In this document: positions 2,036 through 40,357 of the stretch, piece after piece | How the letters are laid out: each line of letters starts with the position of its first letter | How positions within the stretch are numbered: the first letter of the stretch is position 1 | NCBI GenBank assembly: GCA_017501005.1 | Contig: JAFVXT010000061.1 | Span: forward strand, 1 to 42,774 | Length of the DNA stretch: 42,774 bases | From: Clostridia bacterium | GTDB taxonomy: Bacteria > Bacillota > Clostridia > Oscillospirales > CAG-272 | Direction: 5' to 3' | The notes under the pieces: generated by a model | The model's input: the letters and a program-made list of their open reading frames with translations, nothing else | Databases searched by the model: none | Told to the model about the DNA's origin: nothing | Translations under genes and position numbers: made by a program

Positions 2036-4845
<2,810 letters not shown>

Positions 4846-12448: not shown

Positions 12449-12990
12449 TTCTTGAATATTTTTTGCCCGACAGATGCTTTCGAAGCTTTGATAAGCTGAC
12501 ACCCGAGCGCTTGCAAAGGCTCGGCATCAGGGGACTGATTCTCGATATCGATAATACCATTGCGCCGTATGAGGAGGCCATGCCCGGCAAGCGCGCGCTC
12601 GAGTGGTTTCATGAAATGGAGGCGGCAGGCATTCGCATTGCCTTCGTATCCAATAACGAGGCCGAGCGCGTAGATCTTTTTAACCGCGATCTCGGCTATC
12701 CGCATTTTTCGAAAAGCGGCAAGCCGCTCGGCAAGAACGTGCGCCGCGCCATGCGTGCCATGGGAACGACAAGAAAAAACACAGCCTTGATGGGCGACCA
12801 GATCTTTACCGATATCCTTGCCGCCCGCTTGGCGGGGCTGAAGCGTACCTTTTTGGTGCCGCCGATCAAGGATAAAACCGATTGGCTTACGCAAGGGAAG
12901 CGCTTGCTCGAAAAGCCGATCCTTTATGCCTATCGCAAAAAGGCGGCACTCCTGAATTTGAAAAGAAGGAGAAAGAACCATGCGGAGTAA
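12445..12990 (+). CDS. yqeG: YqeG family HAD-IIIA phosphatase
   Basis: DIDNT (DxDxT) motif, VSNN, and GDQIFTDI motif. About 181 aa. The GTG start overlaps the upstream stop. Confidence 0.8.
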   Translation: MILEYFLPDRCFRSFDKLTPERLQRLGIRGLILDIDNTIAPYEEAMPGKRALEWFHEMEAAGIRIAFVSNNEAERVDLFNRDLGYPHFSKSGKPLGKNVRRAMRAMGTTRKNTALMGDQIFTDILAARLAGLKRTFLVPPIKDKTDWLTQGKRLLEKPILYAYRKKAALLNLKRRRKNHAE

Positions 12991-13846
12991 GGCTCTGTTC
13001 GGCCCCGGCGGTAATAGCGAGGCCTTTTACCGCGACGGCTGTAAATCCACGCGTCAAGCGCCCGCCTGGGTCAAGCGCATCGGCCTTGATGCTTATGAAT
13101 TTGAAGCGGGGAACGGCATTTCTGCCGGTGACGAAACCCTGGCCGCGATCGGGGCGGCCGCGTATGACGAGGGCGTGCATATGTCGCTTCATTCGCCCTA
13201 TTACATTTAGCTTTCGGGCATCATTCCCGAAAAAAGACTGAAAAGCATTGATTATATCAAAAGCAGTCTGCACGCGGCGGCGCTTCTGCGCGCAAAGACC
13301 GTGGTCGTGCATACGGGCAGTGCGGCAAAGATCGACCGTAGCGAGGCCATGAAGCTCGCCGCAGATACTCTCGACCGAACGCTCGCGGAGGTGGGCGAGG
13401 ACGGTGCGTTTATCGGCCTTGAAACCATGGGTAAGGTCAATCAGCTCGGCACGCTCGAAGAGGTCATCGCACTTTGCAAAATGAGCCGCCGTCTTGTGCC
13501 CGTCGTTGATTTCGGTCATATGAACGCACGTGCGTGCGGCGGTGTTTTTCCCGACGTCGATGCGTACAGACGCATTTTTTCTGCCATCGGAGAAGCACTT
13601 GACGATCAGACAGCGCGCAATTTGCATTGCCATTTCTCCAAAATCGAATGGACGGGCGCGGGTGAGAAAAAGCATCTGACCTTTGAGGATGCGGTGTACG
13701 GCCCCGATTTTGAGCCGCTCATGGAATGCCTGGTCCGCGAGAATCTGACACCGACCGTCATCTGCGAATCCGCAGGTACGATGAGTGACGATGCCTTGGC
13801 CATGAAGAAAAGCTATGAGAGGGCACTTGCGCAATGGAAAAATTAA
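12980..13846 (+). pseudogene. AP endonuclease family 2 / xylose-isomerase-like TIM-barrel protein interrupted by one in-frame TAG (13208-13210)
   Basis: ORFs 12980-13210 and 13301-13846 share one frame, and the frame stays open from 13211 onward. The joined product reads ...HMSLHSPYYI*LSGIIPEKRLKSIDYIKSSLHAAALLRAKTVVVHTG..., a continuous conserved TIM-barrel sequence. Confidence 0.75.
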
Positions 13847-14901
13847 GCAGAATCCGCCGTGCCATGAAGGAAAACGGCTTTGAGGCGATTCTTTTGACCG
13901 ACGAGATCAACTGCTATTATGCCACGGGCTTTTCCTTCACCGACGGGTGCGTCCTCGTCACCGACCGAAGCGCTCACCTGATCACGGATACACGCTATAC
14001 CGAGGAAGCGGCCATGCACGCAGACTCTGCGTTTGAGGTCGCAGCGCCCCAATCCCGTGCATCTTACGTGAGTGAGGTGCTTGACGGAGAAGGCGTGAAA
14101 ACGCTTGGCTACGAGGATCTTTCACTTTCCTGTGCCGATTTTCGGAAAATGCAAAAGACCTACCCCTTGACATTGAAAGCGATGGGGGATCTGATGAGCA
14201 CGTTGCGCGAGATTAAGGACAGCGATGAGCTTCTACTGATGAAGCGCGCACAGGAGCTGACCGACCGCGCATTTACCCATATTCTCACGGTGATGACGCC
14301 CGCGATGACCGAAACCGAGGTCGCTTTGGAGCTTGAATTTTTCATGCGGAAAAACGGTGCGGAAGGGCTTGCCTTCGAGACCATTGCGGTTTCGGGGGCT
14401 GCCAGCTCCTTGCCGCACGGCAAGCCGCAAAACCGTCCCTTGGAAAAAGGATTTCTCACCATGGATTTCGGGGCACGCTTTGACGGCTACTGCTCGGATA
14501 TGACCAGAACCGTGTGCATCGGCCGTGCCGATGCCGAAATGAAGCATCTTTACGAAACCGTTTTGCAAGCGCAAAGGGCGGCTCTCGCGGAAATCCGTGC
14601 AGGGGTTGATTGCCGTGCAGTGGACGCCGTGGCGCGTTCCTTGATTGAAGGAGCAGGCTATCGGGGCAAATTCGGGCACGGGCTCGGTCATGCCGTGGGG
14701 CTCTTGATCCATGAAAGCCCGCGCTTTTCTCCCATGGCGGGGGCGCGTGTTTTGGAGGTCGGGCACGTGATGACAGTGGAGCCGGGTATTTATCTCGAAG
14801 GGAAGTACGGCTGCCGTATCGAGGATATGGTGGCAGTCACGGAAGACGGGTATACCTCATTTACTGCTTCACCGAAGGATCTGATCGAGCTTTTTGCATA
14901 A
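13834..14901 (+). CDS. M24 family Xaa-Pro aminopeptidase/dipeptidase
   Basis: Creatinase-like N-domain plus a pita-bread fold with metal ligands (DFGARFDGYCSDMTRT, HGLGHAVGLLIHE, EPGIY, IED). Confidence 0.85.
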   Translation: MEKLSRIRRAMKENGFEAILLTDEINCYYATGFSFTDGCVLVTDRSAHLITDTRYTEEAAMHADSAFEVAAPQSRASYVSEVLDGEGVKTLGYEDLSLSCADFRKMQKTYPLTLKAMGDLMSTLREIKDSDELLLMKRAQELTDRAFTHILTVMTPAMTETEVALELEFFMRKNGAEGLAFETIAVSGAASSLPHGKPQNRPLEKGFLTMDFGARFDGYCSDMTRTVCIGRADAEMKHLYETVLQAQRAALAEIRAGVDCRAVDAVARSLIEGAGYRGKFGHGLGHAVGLLIHESPRFSPMAGARVLEVGHVMTVEPGIYLEGKYGCRIEDMVAVTEDGYTSFTASPKDLIELFA

Positions 14902-14937
14902 TTTCGGTAAAAAAAACAAAAAAATTTCAATATCCTC

Positions 14938-14966
14938 TTGCAAAATTTGAGATTATAGTGTAAAAT
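14938..14966 (+). promoter_or_regulatory. Sigma-A type promoter candidate for efp
   Basis: TTGCAA (14938-14943), 17 nt, then TAAAAT (14961-14966). Confidence 0.5.
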
Positions 14967-15083
14967 AGATTTGTCAGAATATGTCTTGCCGAAGAGGAAG
15001 ACAAGCGCGCTGGCTTTTACGGCGGAAAAGCGGTGCGGAAAAATATAAAAAACTAACAAACCGCCGGGAAAAAGGTGCTATTT

Positions 15084-15641
15084 ATGGTTACAGCAGGAGA
15101 TTTCAGAAACGGTATTACCTTCGACATGGACGGCGACGTCATGCAGATTATCGAGTTTCAGCACGTGAAACCCGGTAAAGGCGCGGCTTTCGTTCGCACC
15201 AAGCTGAAGAATGTTATCAGCGGTGCCGTGATCGAAAAGACCTTCAACCCGACTGAAAAATTTGAAAACGCTCACATCGACAGAAAAGAGATGCAGTATC
15301 TCTATAACGATGACAATCTTTACTATTTCATGGATATGGAAACGTTTGACCAGATTCCTCTGGATGCAGACAAGCTCGGCGATAACTTCAAGTTCGTGAA
15401 GGAAAACACCCTTTGCAAGATTATTTCCTACAAGGGCAACGTTTTCGGCGTTGAGCCTCCGCTCTTCGTTGAGCTCGAGGTCGTTGATACCGAGCCCGGT
15501 GTTCGCGGCGATACCGCAACCAACGTCACCAAGCCCGCAACGCTTGAAACAGGCGCTGTGATCAAGGTTCCGATCTTCATTAACACGGGCGATATGCTCC
15601 GCATCGATACCAGAACCGGCGAATATCTGGAGCGCGCATAA
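15084..15641 (+). CDS. efp: Elongation factor P
   Basis: [13 protein letters not shown]...[16 protein letters not shown]..., 185 aa. Confidence 0.95.
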
Positions 15642-15678
15642 TCCACCGACCGAGCAAATAGGAAAGTGAGGGAAGATT

Positions 15679-16125
15679 ATGAAAATCACTGAAAAAGCAG
15701 CATACCTGAAGGGCCTTTGCGACGGCTTGAAGCCCGATGCAAACAAAGCCGAAGGAAAATTGATCCTTGAATTGATCGAAACCGTGTCTCTTATGGCTGC
15801 AAAGATCGAGGAAATGGAAGCCGATGCCAAGAATCTTCGCGAATACGTTGAAGAGCTTGATGAGGATCTCGGCTCCGTCGAAGAAGATCTTTATGCCGAA
15901 GAGGACGACGAGGATGAAGACGACGACGAGGATGATTATCTCAACCCCGATGATTATTTCAACGTCGAGTGTCCCAGCTGCGGAGAGACCATTTGTTTCG
16001 ACGATTCTGTTGATCCCTCGAACCTGACTTGCCCCGCATGTGGCGAAAGCATTGAATGTGAAATTGAATGTGACGGCGATTGCGCGCAGTGTGAAGGTTG
16101 CGAGAGTGACGAAGAAGACAACTGA
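15679..16125 (+). CDS. Acidic protein with C-terminal CxxC zinc ribbons (CD1247 N-terminal domain-like, tentative)
   Basis: 148 aa. It has an N-terminal helical segment, a D/E-rich linker, then CPSCG...CPACG and a Cys-rich tail. AGGGAAG-like SD. Confidence 0.6.
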   Translation: MKITEKAAYLKGLCDGLKPDANKAEGKLILELIETVSLMAAKIEEMEADAKNLREYVEELDEDLGSVEEDLYAEEDDEDEDDDEDDYLNPDDYFNVECPSCGETICFDDSVDPSNLTCPACGESIECEIECDGDCAQCEGCESDEEDN

Positions 16126-16127
16126 TC

Positions 16128-16159
16128 AAAAAAGCCGTTGCGTGAGCAACGGCTTTTTT
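16128..16159 (+). terminator. Rho-independent terminator
   Basis: AAAAAAGCCGTTGC-GTGA-GCAACGGCTTTTTT. Confidence 0.85.
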
Positions 16160-16180
16160 CATTGAAAAAAGGAGAACACT

Positions 16181-18106
16181 ATGATTCAGGACAAGCGTTG
16201 TGTCCATCTGGATTTCCACACCTCTGAAAAAATCAAGGGCATCGGCGCGGATTTTAAGCGCGAAGAATTTGCAGCCGCTTTGAAAGAAGCCAATCTTGAT
16301 TCCATCACCGTTTTTGCCAAGTGCCATCACGGTAATTTGTATTATCATTCGGATAAGTATTTTACGCATCCGCACTTGACCATTCCTCTGCTTGAGGAGC
16401 AGCTTGCCGCTTGTAAGGAAGCGGGGGTTTCGGCAAAGATCTATATTTCCGCAGGCTTTGACGAGCACAGCGCGATGGAGCACCCCGAATGGCTGCAGGT
16501 GACAAGCGACGGCACGCACCCCAATCTGCTCATGCCCGGCTTCAAGCGCCTTTGCTTCAACACGCCCTATCTTGACGTGCTTGTCGGTCAGACCGAGGAG
16601 ATCATGGAAAAATACAATCCCGACGGTGTGTTCTACGATATCGTTGCCGAAGGTCCTTGTACTTGTCGCTGGTGCATGCGCGATATGGCGAAAAAAGGTC
16701 TTGACTATCGCAAGTATGAAGACTTGATGAAGCAAGCGCGCGACGTCTTTATGAAATTTACCGAAACCCTGACAGGCACCGTCCGCCGCTATCATCAAGA
16801 CACGCTTGTTTTCTATAATGCGGGCAATTTCCCTGTCGGTGCGCAGTACCGTCTCAATTGCTGCGATCAGCTTGAGGCAGAATCTCTGCCGACAGGCGGT
16901 TGGGGCTATGACCATTTCCCGATGACCATGTCTTATATTCGCCGCAACGGCAAGAATTGTATCGGTATGACCGGTAAATTTCACCGTTCCTGGGGCGATA
17001 TGGGCACGTATAAGTATAAAGACGCATTGCTTTACGAGGGTGCGCAGTGCCTTGCCTTTGATGCAGGTCTTTCTGTCGGCGACTCCTTGCATCCCGGCGG
17101 AAGAGTTGATTCCTATACTTACGAAAACATTGGTAATACCATGCGCTATCTCGAAGAAAGAACGCCGTGGCGCGGCGGCGAATTTCTGCCAGAATTTGCC
17201 GTTTTGGGCGAAGGCGCTTCAAGGGGCGTGCAGGGACGCATCGGTGCCAGCCGTATGTTCTTTGAGAAAAAATACCTCTTTGATATCATTGACAATGCAG
17301 AGATTTCCAACCGTTATCCCCTGATCGTTCTGCCCAATGACGCGGCTCTGACCGACGCGGCATATAAGGCCCTGACCGATTACGTTGCAAACGGCGGTAA
17401 GATCCTTGCTGTTGGTCAGGCGCCGATGTACCGAGGGCAAATGGCCTTTGATCTCGGTGCGGAAATGATCGGCCCCGATGAGCTCACGCCGACATTCTTC
17501 CGTGCCCGTTACGAGCTTGCGGCAGCGAGCGGCATGACCATGTTCGTGGAGAATGCGACGTACGATATCCGTGCGACAGGCGAAGTGCTTGCCGATAAGT
17601 TTTCACCGTATTTCAAGCGGGAAGGCTTGAATTTCTCGGGCCATAGTCATACCTCGGCCGATTTCAGTAAGGTCTCGCCTGCCATCACGATGGGCAAGCA
17701 CGGCATTTACGTATCCTCGTGCGTTTTTGCCGAGTATGCAAAATTGGGTAGCCTGAACGACAAGCAGCTTGTGCTTCCTTTGATGGAAATGCTTCTCGGA
17801 AAAGAGAATAAGACCGTTGAAACCAATCTGCCGTCAAACGGTAAGGTCACGCTTTATAAGAAGGGCGGCTCCTACATTCTGCACCTGCTTTATGCCAATA
17901 CCGTCAAGCGCGGTGAAAACATAGAGGTCATTGAGGATCTTGCCACCTTGGCTGATATCAACGTTTCCTTGAAGCTTCCCGAAAACGTGACGCGCGCCAT
18001 CTGCCGTCCGTCGGGCAAGGAGATTGCCTTGACCAAGGACGAAAACGGCCGCATCAGCTTTACGCTTGAACGTTTCCGTTGTCACGAGATCATTGAACTG
18101 ATCTGA
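16181..18106 (+). CDS. Putative glycoside hydrolase (TIM-barrel N-domain, GHL6-like; family uncertain)
   Basis: 641-aa ORF with a GGAGAA SD. The N-terminus VHLDFHTSE...ITVFAKCHHG resembles hypothetical glycosyl hydrolase 6-type proteins. No catalytic residues were verified. Confidence 0.4.
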   Translation: MIQDKRCVHLDFHTSEKIKGIGADFKREEFAAALKEANLDSITVFAKCHHGNLYYHSDKYFTHPHLTIPLLEEQLAACKEAGVSAKIYISAGFDEHSAMEHPEWLQVTSDGTHPNLLMPGFKRLCFNTPYLDVLVGQTEEIMEKYNPDGVFYDIVAEGPCTCRWCMRDMAKKGLDYRKYEDLMKQARDVFMKFTETLTGTVRRYHQDTLVFYNAGNFPVGAQYRLNCCDQLEAESLPTGGWGYDHFPMTMSYIRRNGKNCIGMTGKFHRSWGDMGTYKYKDALLYEGAQCLAFDAGLSVGDSLHPGGRVDSYTYENIGNTMRYLEERTPWRGGEFLPEFAVLGEGASRGVQGRIGASRMFFEKKYLFDIIDNAEISNRYPLIVLPNDAALTDAAYKALTDYVANGGKILAVGQAPMYRGQMAFDLGAEMIGPDELTPTFFRARYELAAASGMTMFVENATYDIRATGEVLADKFSPYFKREGLNFSGHSHTSADFSKVSPAITMGKHGIYVSSCVFAEYAKLGSLNDKQLVLPLMEMLLGKENKTVETNLPSNGKVTLYKKGGSYILHLLYANTVKRGENIEVIEDLATLADINVSLKLPENVTRAICRPSGKEIALTKDENGRISFTLERFRCHEIIELI

Positions 18107-18120
18107 TTCCCTTATAGAAG

Positions 18121-18159
18121 AAACACCTTGAGTGTCACATGGCACTCAAGGTGTTTTTT
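18121..18159 (+). terminator. Rho-independent terminator
   Basis: AAACACCTTGAGTG...CACTCAAGGTGTTT stem followed by a T-run. Confidence 0.85.
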
Positions 18160-18217
18160 GTTAGCAGAAGTTTTGAAAAGCGCGCGCATTTTCGTGTTTT
18201 GGAGAGGCGCGTTTTTG

Positions 18218-18261
18218 AAAAACAGCACAGGCATTCATGAAAGAAAGCCTGTGCTGTTTTT
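18218..18261 (-). terminator. Rho-independent terminator of the decarboxylase operon (usable in both directions)
   Basis: AAAAACAGCACAGGC...GCCTGTGCTGTTTTT, a 15-bp stem, 8 nt beyond the stop at 18270. Confidence 0.85.
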
Positions 18262-18269
18262 AGTTTGAT

Positions 18270-19703
18270 TTAGATGGAATGAATGCCGTTCTTCGCATCG
18301 GCATTGTCATCAAGATGGTGCATTTTCTTCTTGCGTGCTTCAAAGAATTTGACTGCAACCTGCTCGAAGAGAGCAAGCGAAAGCAGGTCTTCTTCCTGAA
18401 TAGCATAGGGGGCAACACGCTCACGCAAGGTGGCAATTTCGTCGGGAATATTATCTGCGGGACGGCAGGTGATCGGCTCGTCGTCGCCGATGATGCGGCG
18501 GCGGAATTCTTCACTGATCTCGACGGGAGTCTTGCCGTATTCGCCGCGAACCAAGCCGCGGAATTCCTAGGTGGTCGTCTGGTAGCGTTCACCGCCTGCG
18601 GCGACTGCCAAAACGTTGCTCACTGCCTGCGTACCGACGATCTGCGAGGTAGGCGTGACGAGCGGCGGGAAGCCTGCGTCCTCACGAACGCGCGGAACCT
18701 CAGCCAGAACCTCGGGCAATTTGTCGGATTTGCCTGCCATCTTGAGCTGGGAAACAAGGTTGGAGAGCATGCCGCCGGGCACCTGATAGCGGAGCACGTT
18801 GACGTCCACCTTCAGCACCTTGGTGTCGATCAGGCCGCTTTCCAGATATTTGGTGCGGAGCGAATCGAAGTGGCGGGAGATCTCGTTGAGGCTGTCAAGA
18901 TTGAGACCTGTATCGTAGGGAGTATCGGCAAGCGTTGCAACCATAGCCTCGGTCGAGGGCTGCGACGTACCCATCGAGAAGGGAGAAATCGCAGTATCAA
19001 TGACGTCAACACCGGCTTCAATCGCCTTCAGGAGCGTCATCTAGCCAAGACCCGACGTGTAGTGCGTGTGAAGCTGGATCTTGATATCGGCGGGTGTGCC
19101 GTTTGCGTCCTTCGGAATGACCTCCTTGATGGCCTTGACGAGCTGATATGCGTCAAACGGCTTCAAAAGACCTGCCATATCCTTGATACAAATGGAGTTT
19201 GCACCCATTTCGATCAGCTGACGTGCGTAATTTGCGAAAAACGCATTGTCATGCACGGGGCTGGTGGTATAGCTGATGGCCGCCTGCACGTGGCCGCCTT
19301 CCTTGATGGTGGCGTTGATGGCGGTCTCCAGGTTGCGCGCATCGTTGAGCGCATCGAAAATACGGATAATGTCGATACCGTTCGCAATCGACTTCTGTAC
19401 GAAGTAAGCAACGACGTCGTCTGCATAGTGACGGTAGCCGAGAATGTTCTGGCCGCGGAAGAGCATCTGAAGCTTGGTGTTCTTTACGTGAGAGCGAATG
19501 GTGCGCAGTCTTTCCCACGGATCCTCGTTCAAAAAGCGAAGGCAGGAGTCAAAGGTTGCGCCGCCCCAGGCTTCAAGAGAGTAGTAGCCGACTTTGTCCA
19601 TCGCGTCGAGGATCGGCAACATTTCTTCGGTCGTCATACGCGTTGCCGCCAAGGACTGATGCGAGTCGCGCAGAACGGTTTCTGTAATGAATACTTTTCC
19701 CAT
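18270..19703 (-). pseudogene. OadA / PycB / transcarboxylase-5S type carboxyltransferase (no biotinyl domain) interrupted by two in-frame TAG codons
   Basis: Three same-frame ORFs (19041-19703, 18567-19040, 18270-18554) join into about 477 codons: ...ITETVLRDSHQS..., ...[29 protein letters not shown]..., ...[22 protein letters not shown].... The TAGs are at 19041-19043 and 18567-18569. Confidence 0.85.
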
Positions 19704-19729
19704 TGGATTGTAATCGTCCTTTCAGTAAA

Positions 19730-20938
19730 TTATTTGAAGATTTGCAGGAACACACCTGCCGCAACGGCAGAGCCGATGACACCTGCCACGTTCGGGCCCA
19801 TGGCGTGCATGAGCAGGAAGTTGGAGGGGTTCTCCTTGCGTCCGACGTCTTGCGCAACACGTGCCGCCATCGGAACTGCGGAAACACCCGCACTGCCGAT
19901 CAGCGGATTGATCTTGCCGCCCGACAGGAAGCACATCAGTTTTCCCAAAAGCAAACCGCCGCAGGTCGAAAGAATGAAGGCCGAAAGCCCGAGAACAATG
20001 ATCTTCAAGGTTTCGGGTGCAAGGAAACGTTCAGCACTTGCCGTGGCACCAACCGAAACGCCGAGCATGATGGTGACGATGTTGATCAGCGAATCCTGTG
20101 CGGTCTTGGACAGACGGTCTGTGACACCGCAAACGTTCAGAAGGTTACCGAACATGAGAAAGCCAATAAGGGGTGCTGCATCGGGCACGAGAAGAAGCAC
20201 GATGATGGTGACAAGAACGGGGAATGCGATCTTTTCAAATTTGGACACGGGACGGAGCGCAGGCATGGTGATTACGCGTTCCTTTTTTGTGGTCAAAAGA
20301 CGCATAAATATTGGCTGGATCAACGGAATCAGAGCCATGTAGCTATAGGCCGCAATGGCAATGGCACCGAGCAAGTGAGGTGCAAGCTCCTTGGTGACGA
20401 GGATCGCCGTCGGGCCGTCCGCACCGCCGATGATACCGATGGCGGCTGCGGCTTCGGGGGCAAAGCCAAGCAAAAGTGCGCCGAAGAAGGCGGCAAACAC
20501 ACCGAATTGGGCGGCAGCACCGTGGAAGAGCGTTTTCGGATTGGCGATGAGAGGCGTAAAGTCGGTCATTGCACCGATACCGAGGAAGATGATCGAAGGA
20601 TAAATACCGAGCTTGACACCGAGATACAGAATGTCAAGAAGACCGCCTTCGTTGGCAACCAAACCTAAAATATCGGTCATTTTTTTCTCTGTATCGACAA
20701 ACCAATCCATATGGAAAATGCCGGTTCCCGGGAAGTTTGTCAAAAGCATACCGAACGCGATCGGCAGAAGCAGAAGCGGCTCGAACTTCTTGACGATGGC
20801 AAGATAAAACAGAAGGATTGCGATACCGATCATGACAAGCGAGCGCCAGTCGTAATCCGTACCCTCAACGATTTTGGCAATGCCCGTGCTTTTGGCAAAG
20901 CCGACGATCGCATTCCAGATATTTTCAAAAAGACTCAT
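19730..20938 (-). CDS. Sodium ion-translocating decarboxylase beta subunit (OadB/MmdB/GcdB family)
   Basis: 402-aa polytopic membrane protein with GIGAMTDF and GGADGPT motifs. Confidence 0.9.
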   Translation of the reverse strand: MSLFENIWNAIVGFAKSTGIAKIVEGTDYDWRSLVMIGIAILLFYLAIVKKFEPLLLLPIAFGMLLTNFPGTGIFHMDWFVDTEKKMTDILGLVANEGGLLDILYLGVKLGIYPSIIFLGIGAMTDFTPLIANPKTLFHGAAAQFGVFAAFFGALLLGFAPEAAAAIGIIGGADGPTAILVTKELAPHLLGAIAIAAYSYMALIPLIQPIFMRLLTTKKERVITMPALRPVSKFEKIAFPVLVTIIVLLLVPDAAPLIGFLMFGNLLNVCGVTDRLSKTAQDSLINIVTIMLGVSVGATASAERFLAPETLKIIVLGLSAFILSTCGGLLLGKLMCFLSGGKINPLIGSAGVSAVPMAARVAQDVGRKENPSNFLLMHAMGPNVAGVIGSAVAAGVFLQIFK

Positions 20939-23407: not shown

Positions 23408-24121
23408 TTATTGCAGCAGAGGAGATACGTATTCACCGAATTTTTCGTAGTTGTCAACGCAGATAAAATCAATATCCGAGCGGTAGACCGATTCATCGTT
23501 GCCGCCGATGCCGTAATCGTCGCCGACGAAGGTCACTTCACCGTGCGAATAGCCGTGTTCGCGGCAGTAAAGATCAAGAGCATAGTATTTGTTGAAGGGC
23601 TTCGGTGCCATGTCGAAGGAGGAGGTGCCGCCAACGAACACCACGTATTCCGAAAAGACCGAGGCCACACGGTCGTAAATTTTTCTGCGCTTGCTACGGT
23701 CGGGATCGAAGCTCAGCTTGTCCGCAAGATCGGCTTCCGTGCCGATAATCGGGAAGGTCACACAGCCCGACGGGTGATATAGCACAGAGTCGCCCTTGTA
23801 TTCGCTGAAGCCGAATTCGCTTCGAAGCATGTCGATGCGTGCGCGAACGCTTTCGCGGTCGCAGGACACGGAATCGTTGCGCAGAATGCGCAGATCCTTT
23901 GCTTCGTGATCGTAAACGCCGTATTGCATGCCGTAGTTGCCGAGAATGTCGATGGGATACTGCCCGAGCTGGTTGAAAACGCGCAGGCACTGTCTCGCAC
24001 TCACCATCAGAAGCTTATAGCGTGCGTTTAGGGCATCAAGCACCAGACGGTTTTTCTCGGTCAGGGGGGATTTGGGTGGGGTAATGGTTCCATCGAGGTC
24101 GAAAGCAATCAGTTTTTTCAT
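23408..24121 (-). CDS. HAD-IIB family hydrolase (Cof/phosphomannomutase-like)
   Basis: N-terminal FDLDGTIT motif. 237 aa. Confidence 0.7.
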   Translation of the reverse strand: MKKLIAFDLDGTITPPKSPLTEKNRLVLDALNARYKLLMVSARQCLRVFNQLGQYPIDILGNYGMQYGVYDHEAKDLRILRNDSVSCDRESVRARIDMLRSEFGFSEYKGDSVLYHPSGCVTFPIIGTEADLADKLSFDPDRSKRRKIYDRVASVFSEYVVFVGGTSSFDMAPKPFNKYYALDLYCREHGYSHGEVTFVGDDYGIGGNDESVYRSDIDFICVDNYEKFGEYVSPLLQ

Positions 24122-25027: not shown

Positions 25028-25555
25028 TCAATGTTTAGAAAATATAGAAGCGCCCGTTGCGTCAATGCCGACGTACAGGGGAAGCTTTTCAATCACAAGG
25101 CGCTTGACAGATTCACAACCGAGCTCGGGAAAGGCAATGACGTCAAGGGTGCGCACGCTTTGTGCAACCAAAGCCCCCGCGCCGCCGAGTGCGAGCAAAT
25201 AAGCACCGCCGTAACGCTTGATGGCCTCATAGACCGTAGGCGAGCGGTCCCCCTTGCCGATGGTCAGCCGCAGCCCCGCATCGAAAAGACGGGGCAGGTA
25301 CGGATCCATGCGTGAAGAGGTGGTCGGGCCGCACGAGCCGATTGGCAAGCCGTTCTTGGCAGGTGTGGGGCCCGCATAATAAATGGCACTTCCCGCAAGC
25401 GGAAAGGGGAGGGGCTTATGCTCGTCAAGCAGAGCACAAAGCCGCTTATGTGCCGCATCGCGCGCGGTATATACCGTGCCCGAAAGCAAGATCTCTTCGC
25501 CTGCGTGAAGCGTTTTGATCCAATCGGCCATCTCCGAAAGTAAGTAGGTTTTCAT
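25028..25555 (-). CDS. Fe-S hydro-lyase beta-type subunit (class I fumarate hydratase / tartrate dehydratase beta)
   Basis: GTVYTARDAAHKRL, IYYAGPTP, GPTTSSRMD and IGKG motifs. About 175 aa from ATG 25555. No alpha-subunit gene is adjacent. Confidence 0.8.
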   Translation of the reverse strand: MKTYLLSEMADWIKTLHAGEEILLSGTVYTARDAAHKRLCALLDEHKPLPFPLAGSAIYYAGPTPAKNGLPIGSCGPTTSSRMDPYLPRLFDAGLRLTIGKGDRSPTVYEAIKRYGGAYLLALGGAGALVAQSVRTLDVIAFPELGCESVKRLVIEKLPLYVGIDATGASIFSKH

Positions 25556-25577
25556 AAGAAGAGTTCCGTTTCTTTTT

Positions 25578-26288
25578 TTATTGTGTGCTTGCACCGAAAT
25601 CGTAGAGATCGTCGATCTCACTTTCCACGATGTCGTCGGTCAAGCGGTTGATTTCCGTATAAGCGTCGGGCACTTTGCCGACGATCAGTGTTTCCGTAAG
25701 ACAATAGCTTTCCAAAACCGTCAGCTTTTCCTTGCCCTGCGGAAACAGCAAAGTGAAGGTGCCTTCCACGTGAAAGACGATGCGGTGACGGGTTTGGTTG
25801 ATGCCCGCTTCTTCAAATTCCGAGGTGTAATACGTATGTAAAAAGCGTGCGGGTATGACCTCGATCTGTGTGCTCGGCCCGACAGACGAAAGAAAATCAA
25901 GGCCGAACAGCCAAAGGTAGGGCACGGAAAGCGAAAGAGAAGAAAGAGAAGCGTAGGAAGCGAAGACTGCTTGGCATACGTCGTTTTGCAAGGAAAGCAA
26001 AAGCGGCATATTGGTGGTCACGGCGGCAACCTCGCCGCCATCCTTAAAGCTTAACGTGACGAGATCCCGATATGCGGCTTCCTTTTGTGCCAGCCTGTCT
26101 TTCATGGCATTCGTGACGGTGCTTGAAAAATAATAGGAAAGCTCGTTTTGACCGAGAGCTGCGGCCATTGTGTGCAGGCGCATATTCAGAAAAAGAGTGA
26201 GGAGAAGCACGGTAAGCAAAAGGCAGAGCAATTTGAAAAGAAAGGGGATCTTTGTGCGGCGGGGGCCGATCGAACCGATTCGTTGCAT
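25578..26288 (-). CDS. yunB: Sporulation protein YunB-like
   Basis: 236 aa with an N-terminal TM helix. Overall similarity to YunB is recalled from memory (…TNMPLLLSLQNDV…, C-terminal LIVGKVPDAY). Confidence 0.55.
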   Translation of the reverse strand: MQRIGSIGPRRTKIPFLFKLLCLLLTVLLLTLFLNMRLHTMAAALGQNELSYYFSSTVTNAMKDRLAQKEAAYRDLVTLSFKDGGEVAAVTTNMPLLLSLQNDVCQAVFASYASLSSLSLSVPYLWLFGLDFLSSVGPSTQIEVIPARFLHTYYTSEFEEAGINQTRHRIVFHVEGTFTLLFPQGKEKLTVLESYCLTETLIVGKVPDAYTEINRLTDDIVESEIDDLYDFGASTQ

Positions 26289-38965: not shown

Positions 38966-40357
38966 CTACGGCACGGTATACCCGGGGTACTGTCCTTCGG
39001 CGGCGCGGTTCCCGTAATAAAGATCCTCATAGACGTTCGTGATGCTATCCCAAAGATTTGCCCCCACAACGCCCTCGGGTCCTGTCAGAGCGAAAACCTC
39101 CTGAAATGCGCGGACGGCATTTTCGGTGGCGGGGCCGAATTGGCCGTCAACCGTGACAGAGGGAATGTCGGTATAGGTCTGCGCAATGTAATTGAGGTAT
39201 TCCTGCAAAAGCACTACGCTTTCACCGCTTGAGCCGCGCACGAGCGTGGTGCCCGGAAAGGGAATGATCCTTCCTTCTCGGTATTCTAACGGAATGGAGG
39301 CAACGAGCGAAAGATACACGTTATAGATGGAGTCCCACGTCGGCTCGTTCACAACGCCCGTGACGGGCAGGCCGTATTCCGTCTGGAATGCGCGGACGGC
39401 TTCCTCGGTGGCAGGGCCGAATTGACCGTCGGCGGTCAGCGTCGGTACGTTCGGATTGAAATTGGCAATGTAACGCAAAAAGTATTGCAGCACACGCACA
39501 CCGATGCCGACCGAACCGATCGAGAGCTCCTCGGGGTATTGTGTTGAGCTTTCGGAAAGCGTCAGCCCCTCCGAATCGAGCGAGGCCAGCCTTTTGACAG
39601 CCGTATAAATATACTGGATGCGATACCACGTGCCCCGACCGACGATGCCGTCGTCGGTGAGAGAAAAGATCCTTTGAAATTCGCGCACGGCCTCTTCGGT
39701 GCTTTCGTCAAAAATGCCGTTGACGGGATAGATCTTCGGAATGGCGGGGTAGTTGGCAGAAATGCGGTTCAGCTGCACCTGAATGCGCTGCACGTCCGAG
39801 CCGATCGAGCCGAGCCGAAGGGGAGAGAGCGGTACGCTTTCTTCAATATCGCCGACGGGAACGTTTGTGACGATGTCGATATTGTTGCCGTAATAATTGG
39901 TGAGGATCTGGTAAGGCGTCAAGCCGCGCTCGGCCAGTGTGACAGTCCCCCATTGCGAAAGGCCGTTGCACTGCACTTCAATGCCGTCGCAGTAGGCGGT
40001 AAAGAGAGGCTCGATGCTCCCTTGGCGGCGCACGTAGCTATCGAAGATATCGTCAACGATGAGTGAAATGTTTTCAAAAATATCGCGGCCGTAGATGAAG
40101 GATTGGTCGTTGGCGGTTGAATTGGTGATGTCAAAATCGTAGCCCTGGCTTCTGTAAAACTCGGTGTAAATGCGGTTGAGCGCAAAGGAGATCTGCGCAT
40201 AGATATTGGCGCGGATGGCGGATTCGGGCCACGTGGGATAGATTTCGCTTGAAGCGACGTTTTTGATGTATTCGGGAAAGGGAAGCGTGACGTTTTGCGC
40301 ATTTGCAGAAGGTCTGCCGAGATGGACGGTGATGTTTTCGGGGATAATGGGCGGCAT
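38966..40357 (-). CDS. Peptidoglycan-binding protein: conserved N-terminal domain plus three PG_binding_1 repeats; the only CDS here ending in TAG
   Basis: N-terminus MPPIIPENITVHLG...YIKNVASSEIYPTWPESAIRANIYAQISFALNRIYTEFYRSQGYDFDITNST.... Three repeats of DGxFGxxTxxAVRxFQ follow. Stop TAG at 38966-38968. Confidence 0.75.
   Translation of the reverse strand: MPPIIPENITVHLGRPSANAQNVTLPFPEYIKNVASSEIYPTWPESAIRANIYAQISFALNRIYTEFYRSQGYDFDITNSTANDQSFIYGRDIFENISLIVDDIFDSYVRRQGSIEPLFTAYCDGIEVQCNGLSQWGTVTLAERGLTPYQILTNYYGNNIDIVTNVPVGDIEESVPLSPLRLGSIGSDVQRIQVQLNRISANYPAIPKIYPVNGIFDESTEEAVREFQRIFSLTDDGIVGRGTWYRIQYIYTAVKRLASLDSEGLTLSESSTQYPEELSIGSVGIGVRVLQYFLRYIANFNPNVPTLTADGQFGPATEEAVRAFQTEYGLPVTGVVNEPTWDSIYNVYLSLVASIPLEYREGRIIPFPGTTLVRGSSGESVVLLQEYLNYIAQTYTDIPSVTVDGQFGPATENAVRAFQEVFALTGPEGVVGANLWDSITNVYEDLYYGNRAAEGQYPGYTVP

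Follow-up and report, generated by a model that had tools for sequence, protein, structure and literature searches.

In-frame TAG codons in two conserved genes of an uncultured gut Clostridia bacterium: recent nonsense alleles in a TAG-avoiding clade?

Introduction

Do in-frame TAG codons in conserved bacterial genes signal that TAG is read as an amino acid, or are they nonsense mutations like any other? The question is posed by a contig of 42,774 nucleotides (JAFVXT010000061.1 of assembly GCA_017501005.1, analyzed over its whole length and called the window here) from a Clostridia bacterium, in which three TAGs interrupt two genes, one for a TIM-barrel protein of the AP-endonuclease family and the other for the 5S/alpha carboxyltransferase subunit of a decarboxylase/transcarboxylase operon, and in which TAG ends only a single gene. 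A first-pass annotation had suggested either amber suppression, read-through, or reassignment of TAG, or else recent pseudogenization or base-call error. We find that i) the TAG changes are private to this assembly; ii) they can be derived in single steps from codons of relatives; iii) neither gene has otherwise decayed; and iv) the codon and oligonucleotide bias against TAG is clade-wide. The reading we tentatively prefer is that the three TAGs arose by recent point substitutions confined to the strain or assembly, in an uncultured Oscillospirales-like species of the ruminant gut that uses the standard code.

Results

Three TAGs in two otherwise intact genes

The three in-frame TAGs lie exactly where the first-pass annotation had placed them (Table 1). 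Its count of terminators is likewise reproduced: our own list of 40 genes gave 26 TAA, 13 TGA, and 1 TAG, and the addition of a 223-codon gene at 4174-4845, recognized as real from relatives, brings the figures to 27, 13, and 1 over 41 genes. No real gene contains an internal TAA or TGA, and TAG read-through of all six frames of the window disclosed no further TAG-interrupted gene, so that 2 of the 41 genes are interrupted, at three sites aligning to Ser, Ser, and Lys. Pfam domains are recognized across the stops in both genes, and the frame is intact on either side of each TAG. The sole TAG terminator was considered as a fourth internal TAG and rejected, as it marks the natural end of the protein, is followed by a hairpin, and precedes a separate peptidoglycan-binding open reading frame (ORF) in another frame.

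Table 1. Positions in the window of the interrupted genes, their TAG codons, the only TAG terminator, and the ligA frameshift
Feature	Position	Strand	Remarks
T7 run in ligA with +1 frameshift	4052..4058	+	removal of one T restores the BRCT C-terminus, ending at TGA 4161-4163
AP_endonuc_2 / xylose-isomerase-like TIM-barrel gene, 288 codons, one TAG	12980..13846	+	Pfam PF01261, E = 2e-26 across the TAG
In-frame TAG, codon 77 of the AP-endonuclease gene	13208..13210	+	replaces Ser
Oxaloacetate-decarboxylase-alpha / transcarboxylase-5S-type carboxyltransferase gene, 477 codons, two TAGs	18270..19703	-	Pfam PF00682 (HMGL-like) and PF02436 (PYC_OADA)
In-frame TAG, codon 379 of the carboxyltransferase gene	18567..18569	-	mostly Lys, variable, in relatives; creates the second of the two CTAGs of the window
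In-frame TAG, codon 221 of the carboxyltransferase gene	19041..19043	-	Ser in relatives; creates one of the two CTAGs of the window
Sole TAG terminator	38966..38968	-	ends peptidoglycan-binding-domain gene 38966-40357; hairpin follows, in-frame TAA 13 codons on

Intact homologs of the AP-endonuclease protein, all of 288 residues, are found at 99%, 91%, and 88% identity, and the residue at the TAG site is Ser in 120 of 120 homologs. The carboxyltransferase gene, which lacks a biotinyl domain and is the last in a carboxyltransferase-gamma-BCCP-beta-alpha operon, has PDB relatives 2NX9, 5KS8, and 1RQB, and intact 477-residue orthologs in two relatives (L081 and L085) and in a conspecific contig (L098). 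Its codon 221 corresponds to Ser in 80 of 80 species-representative relatives, to Ala or Thr in two close relatives, and to Asp in the Vibrio structure 2NX9; codon 379 corresponds to Lys in 70 of the 80, the rest having N, Q, A, D, R, or G. The residues given earlier for the three sites (Ser/Ala-like, Lys, and Asn) were therefore mistaken, and the argument built on them, that differing residues speak against insertion of a single amino acid, is weaker than claimed, the pattern being Ser, Ser, and a variable Lys.

Sense codons at the same sites in conspecifics and congeners

Short conspecific contigs, 98-99.9% identical to the window at the nucleotide level, were found by exact look-ups with EF-P, the biotin carrier, and S20. 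They come from a number of gut metagenomes, among them yak, sheep, and cattle samples (ERZ28653793, ERZ28593901, and others), and from one NCBI metagenome-assembled genome (MAG; GCA_017531665.1), and total about 57 kb with redundancy. Conspecifics carry sense codons at the TAG sites, from which TAG can be reached by point mutation: in L098 codon 221 is TCG and codon 379 is AAG, which a single C>A and a single A>T change, respectively, would turn into TAG. For codon 77 of the AP-endonuclease gene, TCA is read in the conspecific contig L084 (98.7% nucleotide identity), and other relatives have TCC, TCA, or TCG, with TCG in L086-L088. All genus-level relatives (L081, L082, and L085-L088) have sense codons at the TAG sites (TCC/TCT/TCG/TCA and AAG/AAA), and no in-frame TAG occurs in the conspecific contigs in any gene shared with the window. 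Ordinary Ser and Lys codons at these sites in other strains make recent strain-specific nonsense more likely than a changed code.

All four lesions of the window, the three TAGs and an extra T in ligA, are private to its assembly. Exact look-ups of the truncated products (220 and 76 residues) found them on record in no other assembly, in a collection that does not hold the assembly of the window itself; exact-product look-ups of GHL6 and OAD-beta (OAD, oxaloacetate decarboxylase) also had no match. A degenerate pattern with TAG fixed in the Ser221 context had 0 matches in JGI metagenomes and 185k GTDB species genomes; with the codon left free, the pattern recognizes roughly one in two of the homologous loci already known; a 24-mer taken exactly from around Ser221 had 0 matches in JGI metagenomes; and a homolog search with a 260-residue segment spanning both carboxyltransferase TAGs returned only relatives at 62-71% identity and no same-species fragments. 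A ClpC-based scan of species genomes found distant relatives only, at most 64% identical, and the genus thus appears to be absent from that collection.

The frameshift in ligA, also reported by the first-pass annotation, is real and consists of +1 in a T7 run. In two conspecific contigs (L183 and L184) the sequence here is GATTTTGTGG and the LigA product, of 671 residues, is intact, whereas the window reads GATTTTTTTGG, differing by a G>T change that makes a T6 run and by one additional T. Left uncorrected, the frameshift replaces the last ~35 residues of the BRCT domain, at the 3′ end of the gene (4049-4163); with one T deleted the C-terminus is nearly identical to that of relatives.

Isolated in-frame stops of all three kinds also occur in the MAGs of relatives: a TAG at L006:8381 that aligns to Gln, a TAG at L012:959-961, a TGA at L007:888, and a TAA at L047:1634. 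The L012 stop falls in the same carboxyltransferase gene, at a Glu conserved in all 77 aligned relatives.

TAG is rare throughout the clade

That TAG is almost unused as a terminator (1 of 41) had been listed as part of a pattern that would fit recoding, among other causes; the count holds, but it is nothing special to this genome. In genus-level relatives, whose genes are intact, 37 genes end in TAA, 24 in TGA, and 1 in TAG (1 of 62). Orthologs over 80 family-level loci end in TAG in 8 of 324 cases, and a rough gene call over 84 family-level loci gives 7% TAG terminators. If TAG ended genes as often as in the family (7%), at most one TAG among 41 terminators would be seen with a probability of 0.21, and if as often as in the genus (1/62), with a probability of 0.86; TAG is not depleted as a terminator beyond the lineage background.

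The scarcity extends well beyond stop codons. No trinucleotides of the window fall further below expectation than TAG and CTA, its complement (observed/expected about 0.5), and 7 of 12,932 codons are CTA. The tetranucleotide CTAG occurs twice in the 42.7 kb of the window as against 16 expected, 1 time in 57 kb of conspecific sequence, and 168 times as against 962 expected in the family (1.28 Mb of relatives). Being strand-symmetric, the bias points to a cause at the level of oligonucleotides rather than translation, and clade-wide avoidance of TAG, CTA, and CTAG would account for how seldom TAG serves as terminator. Rare TAG termination is a property of the clade and carries no signal of recoding. 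Both CTAGs of the window are the carboxyltransferase TAG sites themselves (18567 and 19041), which indicates that those TAGs are recent; fresh CTAG sites, taken together with the absence of decay in the genes, point to TAG changes that are young.

Private changes and chance expectations

Changes private to the window were polarized by at least two conspecifics in 9.6 kb. These number 33 and comprise 25 synonymous, 4 intergenic, and 4 conservative missense changes, with 26 transitions among them, so that the private differences are not random over codon positions or substitution types. Of random errors, about 73% would be expected to be non-synonymous, with roughly 20 missense changes for each nonsense change. 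Because the private changes are almost all synonymous, both random errors and general decay fit poorly, and of the earlier suggestion of recent pseudogenization or base-call error the recent private change survives while random base-call error is disfavored. The usual signs of an old pseudogene (extra missense changes, frameshifts, and rate acceleration) are not seen in either TAG-interrupted gene.

C>A changes make up 6 of 36 window-private changes when the TAG sites are counted, as against 6 of 133 conspecific singletons (P = 0.02); without the TAG sites the excess has P = 0.11. No sequence motif common to the three TAG sites, of the kind expected of methylation- or context-driven miscalls, was apparent by eye.

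Under the codon usage of the window, one-step nonsense mutations would yield TAG in 50%, TAA in 36%, and TGA in 14% of cases, and the probability that three of three are TAG is 0.13. That all three stops are TAG would mainly be due to codon usage, in which the common codons TCG, AAG, GAG, and CAG make half of one-step nonsense TAG. As for the residues replaced, Ser is found in nearly all relatives at two sites and is plausible at the variable third, although with three sites such agreement with one inserted amino acid is not significant; we discounted the two-of-three coincidence at serine as evidence, since two of three sites would share some amino acid with a probability of 0.46.

Discussion

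Weighing the explanations

If the three TAGs are recent nonsense mutations, the substitutions would be TCG>TAG twice and AAG>TAG once, truncating two non-essential genes and giving fresh loss-of-function alleles rather than old pseudogenes; the ligA frameshift would then be a slippage near the gene end, standing beside these two private loss-of-function alleles. We infer that the TAGs are real mutations rather than artifacts, and that the truncated products are probably non-functional. Several observations sit uneasily with this account. The conspecific and the nearest congener both have TCA at the AP-endonuclease site, from which one step yields TAA or TGA and not TAG, so that TAG there requires either two steps or an unseen TCG intermediate. 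The carboxyltransferase gene was hit twice by nonsense, yet has only 2 lineage-unique missense changes and no rate acceleration, and ligA, an essential gene, is frameshifted as well. In-frame stops are also ~20-fold denser in the window than in relatives, whose roughly 1.28 Mb contain 4 (two TAG, one TGA, and one TAA), a rate that predicts 0.13 per window (P(>=3) = 4e-4). Finally, the strain is otherwise under strong purifying selection, and the neutral ratio predicts only 0.55-0.76 nonsense changes window-wide (P(>=3) = 0.02-0.04).

Some of these difficulties would vanish if the strain suppressed amber codons by inserting Ser, through a tRNA-Ser(CGA) mutated to CUA or a Ser-accepting allo-tRNA, an explanation that we consider rather unlikely but a genuine rival. 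UCG>UAG changes at serines would then be effectively synonymous, and Ser would be tolerated at the variable Lys379, in keeping with TAGs at two serines kept in nearly all relatives and a third at a site where N, Q, A, D, R, and G occur. Suppression would also suit the restriction of in-frame stops to TAG, the appearance of TAG at the AP-endonuclease site although TAA is a one-step product of the conspecific TCA, the lack of decay in either gene, and the surplus of nonsense changes, measured against missense, in a lineage where about 85% of the private changes are silent. Its cost would be low where TAG terminators are rare (roughly 2% in the lineage) and the single TAG-ended gene of the window has a TAA 13 codons on, and Clostridia are known to possess allo-tRNAs that accept Ser but have non-serine anticodons (PMC7609411). 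Against suppression, each of these statistical hints is weak singly and was noticed after the fact: the shared amino acid has a probability of 0.46 by chance, and three TAGs of three have one of 0.13 with no suppressor at all. Two of the three TAGs create the CTAG that the clade avoids, and so look unselected; the conspecific contigs have no in-frame TAG, the TAG alleles are in no independent assembly, and the ligA frameshift would be left unexplained. No tRNA or other Rfam RNA lies within the window, and no suppressor tRNA with a CUA anticodon was seen in the window or in 85 loci of relatives, which together sample only 15 tRNAs. The fuller scenario, of one strain in a TAG-depleted lineage carrying a Ser-inserting suppressor with a CUA anticodon (mutated tRNA-Ser or allo-tRNA) while UCG>UAG changes drift in silently, is in our view improbable. 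An assembly or consensus artifact, in which the TAGs and the extra T of ligA are miscalls or minority variants of sub-strains merged into one sequence (for example, two distinct carboxyltransferase knock-out alleles, 474 bp apart, joined in one contig), is also unlikely. All four lesions are private to one assembly; one is a homopolymer length change in an essential gene; three involve G:C>T:A transversions, the class made by oxidative damage, with the C>A enrichment noted above; and two new CTAGs appear on a CTAG-free background. The C>A excess is not significant once the TAG sites are left out, however, synonymous transitions at third positions make up the great bulk of the other private differences, no common motif is apparent at the three TAG sites, and a noisy long-read consensus would be hard to square with just one frameshift in 41 genes. 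A lineage-wide code change, in which the whole species or genus would read TAG as an amino acid or as pyrrolysine, is largely refuted and very improbable. The very rare TAG terminators (1 of 41 in the window and 1 of 62 in the genus) would agree with it, but they fit strand-symmetric avoidance of TAG, CTA, and CTAG, and in conspecifics and congeners the three positions are sense codons and the genes shared with the window are free of in-frame TAGs. The TAGs fall in unrelated enzymes; neither pyl genes nor methylamine methyltransferases are among the Pfam-annotated genes of the window; a family-level relative (L007) has an RF1 gene with the PxT motif; and two genome-scale screens, of 250,000 and 2.7 million genomes, found no TAG reassignment in bacteria (PMC8629427; bioRxiv 10.64898/2026.04.02.715157). 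What the first-pass annotation proposed as reassignment, suppression, or read-through is not supported as a property of the lineage, and survives as a rival only in the form of a strain-level Ser suppressor.

Genomic context

By Pfam annotation the window is chromosomal DNA of a spore-forming Clostridia bacterium, with genes including ctsR-mcsA-mcsB-clpC, radA, fusA, efp, yunB, ligA, and rpsT, and it has no phage features. The closest public sequences are MAGs of uncultured 'Eubacteriales/Clostridia/Oscillospiraceae' from the guts of ruminants and other animals. The decarboxylase operon runs in the order carboxyltransferase, OAD-gamma, biotin carrier, OAD-beta, and OAD-alpha/5S-type carboxyltransferase. 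The interval between efp and this operon differs between close relatives: the window (16181-18106) has a GHL6 glycosyl-hydrolase-like gene, L085 (9262-13176) has GHL6 and GH127, and L081 has neither. Located 3′ of efp, at 15679-16125, is a gene for a small acidic Cys-rich protein with zinc-ribbon-like CPxCG motifs and no Pfam match, whose Asp/Glu repeat shows in-frame indel polymorphism between conspecifics. A Fumerase_C gene (class I fumarate hydratase beta-type; 25028-25621) is solitary, with no adjoining N-terminal/alpha partner, an arrangement also present in the closest relative, L081.

The conspecific contig L098 has two oddities of its own, an insertion of ~87 nucleotides with several TGA stops inside a HAD-family gene (L098:2216-2343, corresponding to 23833-23873 of the window) and a short, highly divergent OAD-beta patch adjoining a scaffold gap (L098:5826-5907, corresponding to 20323-20399); recombination, or a junction made in assembly, may be the source. 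Antisense ORFs of up to 687 codons overlap real genes in the window (for example, 18279-20342 on the plus strand). Their great length is due to the rarity of CTA, TTA, and TCA codons, and they mislead gene calling that simply takes the longest ORF.

Relation to known systems and significance

Ordinary strain-specific nonsense alleles, annotated as 'internal stop' young pseudogenes, resemble the present case in their single-nucleotide origin from conspecific sense codons, their confinement to one genome, and the dispensability of the genes affected; the differences here are the high density (2 of 41 genes, with two TAGs in one), the strong purifying selection, and the lack of decay. Avoidance of CTAG and TAG is a classic oligonucleotide bias of bacterial genomes, and accounts for the rare TAG terminators and CTA codons of the clade, but not for three new in-frame TAGs, two of which break the bias. 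The supD amber suppressor of Escherichia coli is a tRNA-Ser with a CUA anticodon, and reading UAG as Ser in that manner would silence two of the TAGs and make the third a tolerated substitution. Ser-accepting allo-tRNAs are known from Clostridia, Proteobacteria, and Acidobacteria (PMC7609411); no such tRNA is seen here, in a window with no tRNA of any kind. TAG-recoded systems, such as the code-15 gut phages that read TAG as Gln (bioRxiv 10.1101/2022.01.06.475225) and the archaea and bacteria that decode pyrrolysine (bioRxiv 10.1101/2024.09.30.615893), likewise combine in-frame TAGs in conserved genes with scarce TAG terminators, but they have many in-frame TAGs at the positions of one amino acid, common to relatives, and dedicated tRNAs and enzymes; the window has three private sites on a bacterial chromosome with no pyl or phage features.

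If a Ser suppressor were at work after all, the strain would be a free-living gut bacterium in which serine is naturally beginning to capture the amber codon, and the earliest stage of bacterial stop-codon capture would be seen in nature for the first time. If instead the three TAGs are private nonsense alleles, as we tentatively suppose, they are an ordinary finding, of value chiefly as a warning: in clades that avoid TAG, CTA, and CTAG, scarce TAG terminators plus a handful of in-frame TAGs are no sign of recoding.

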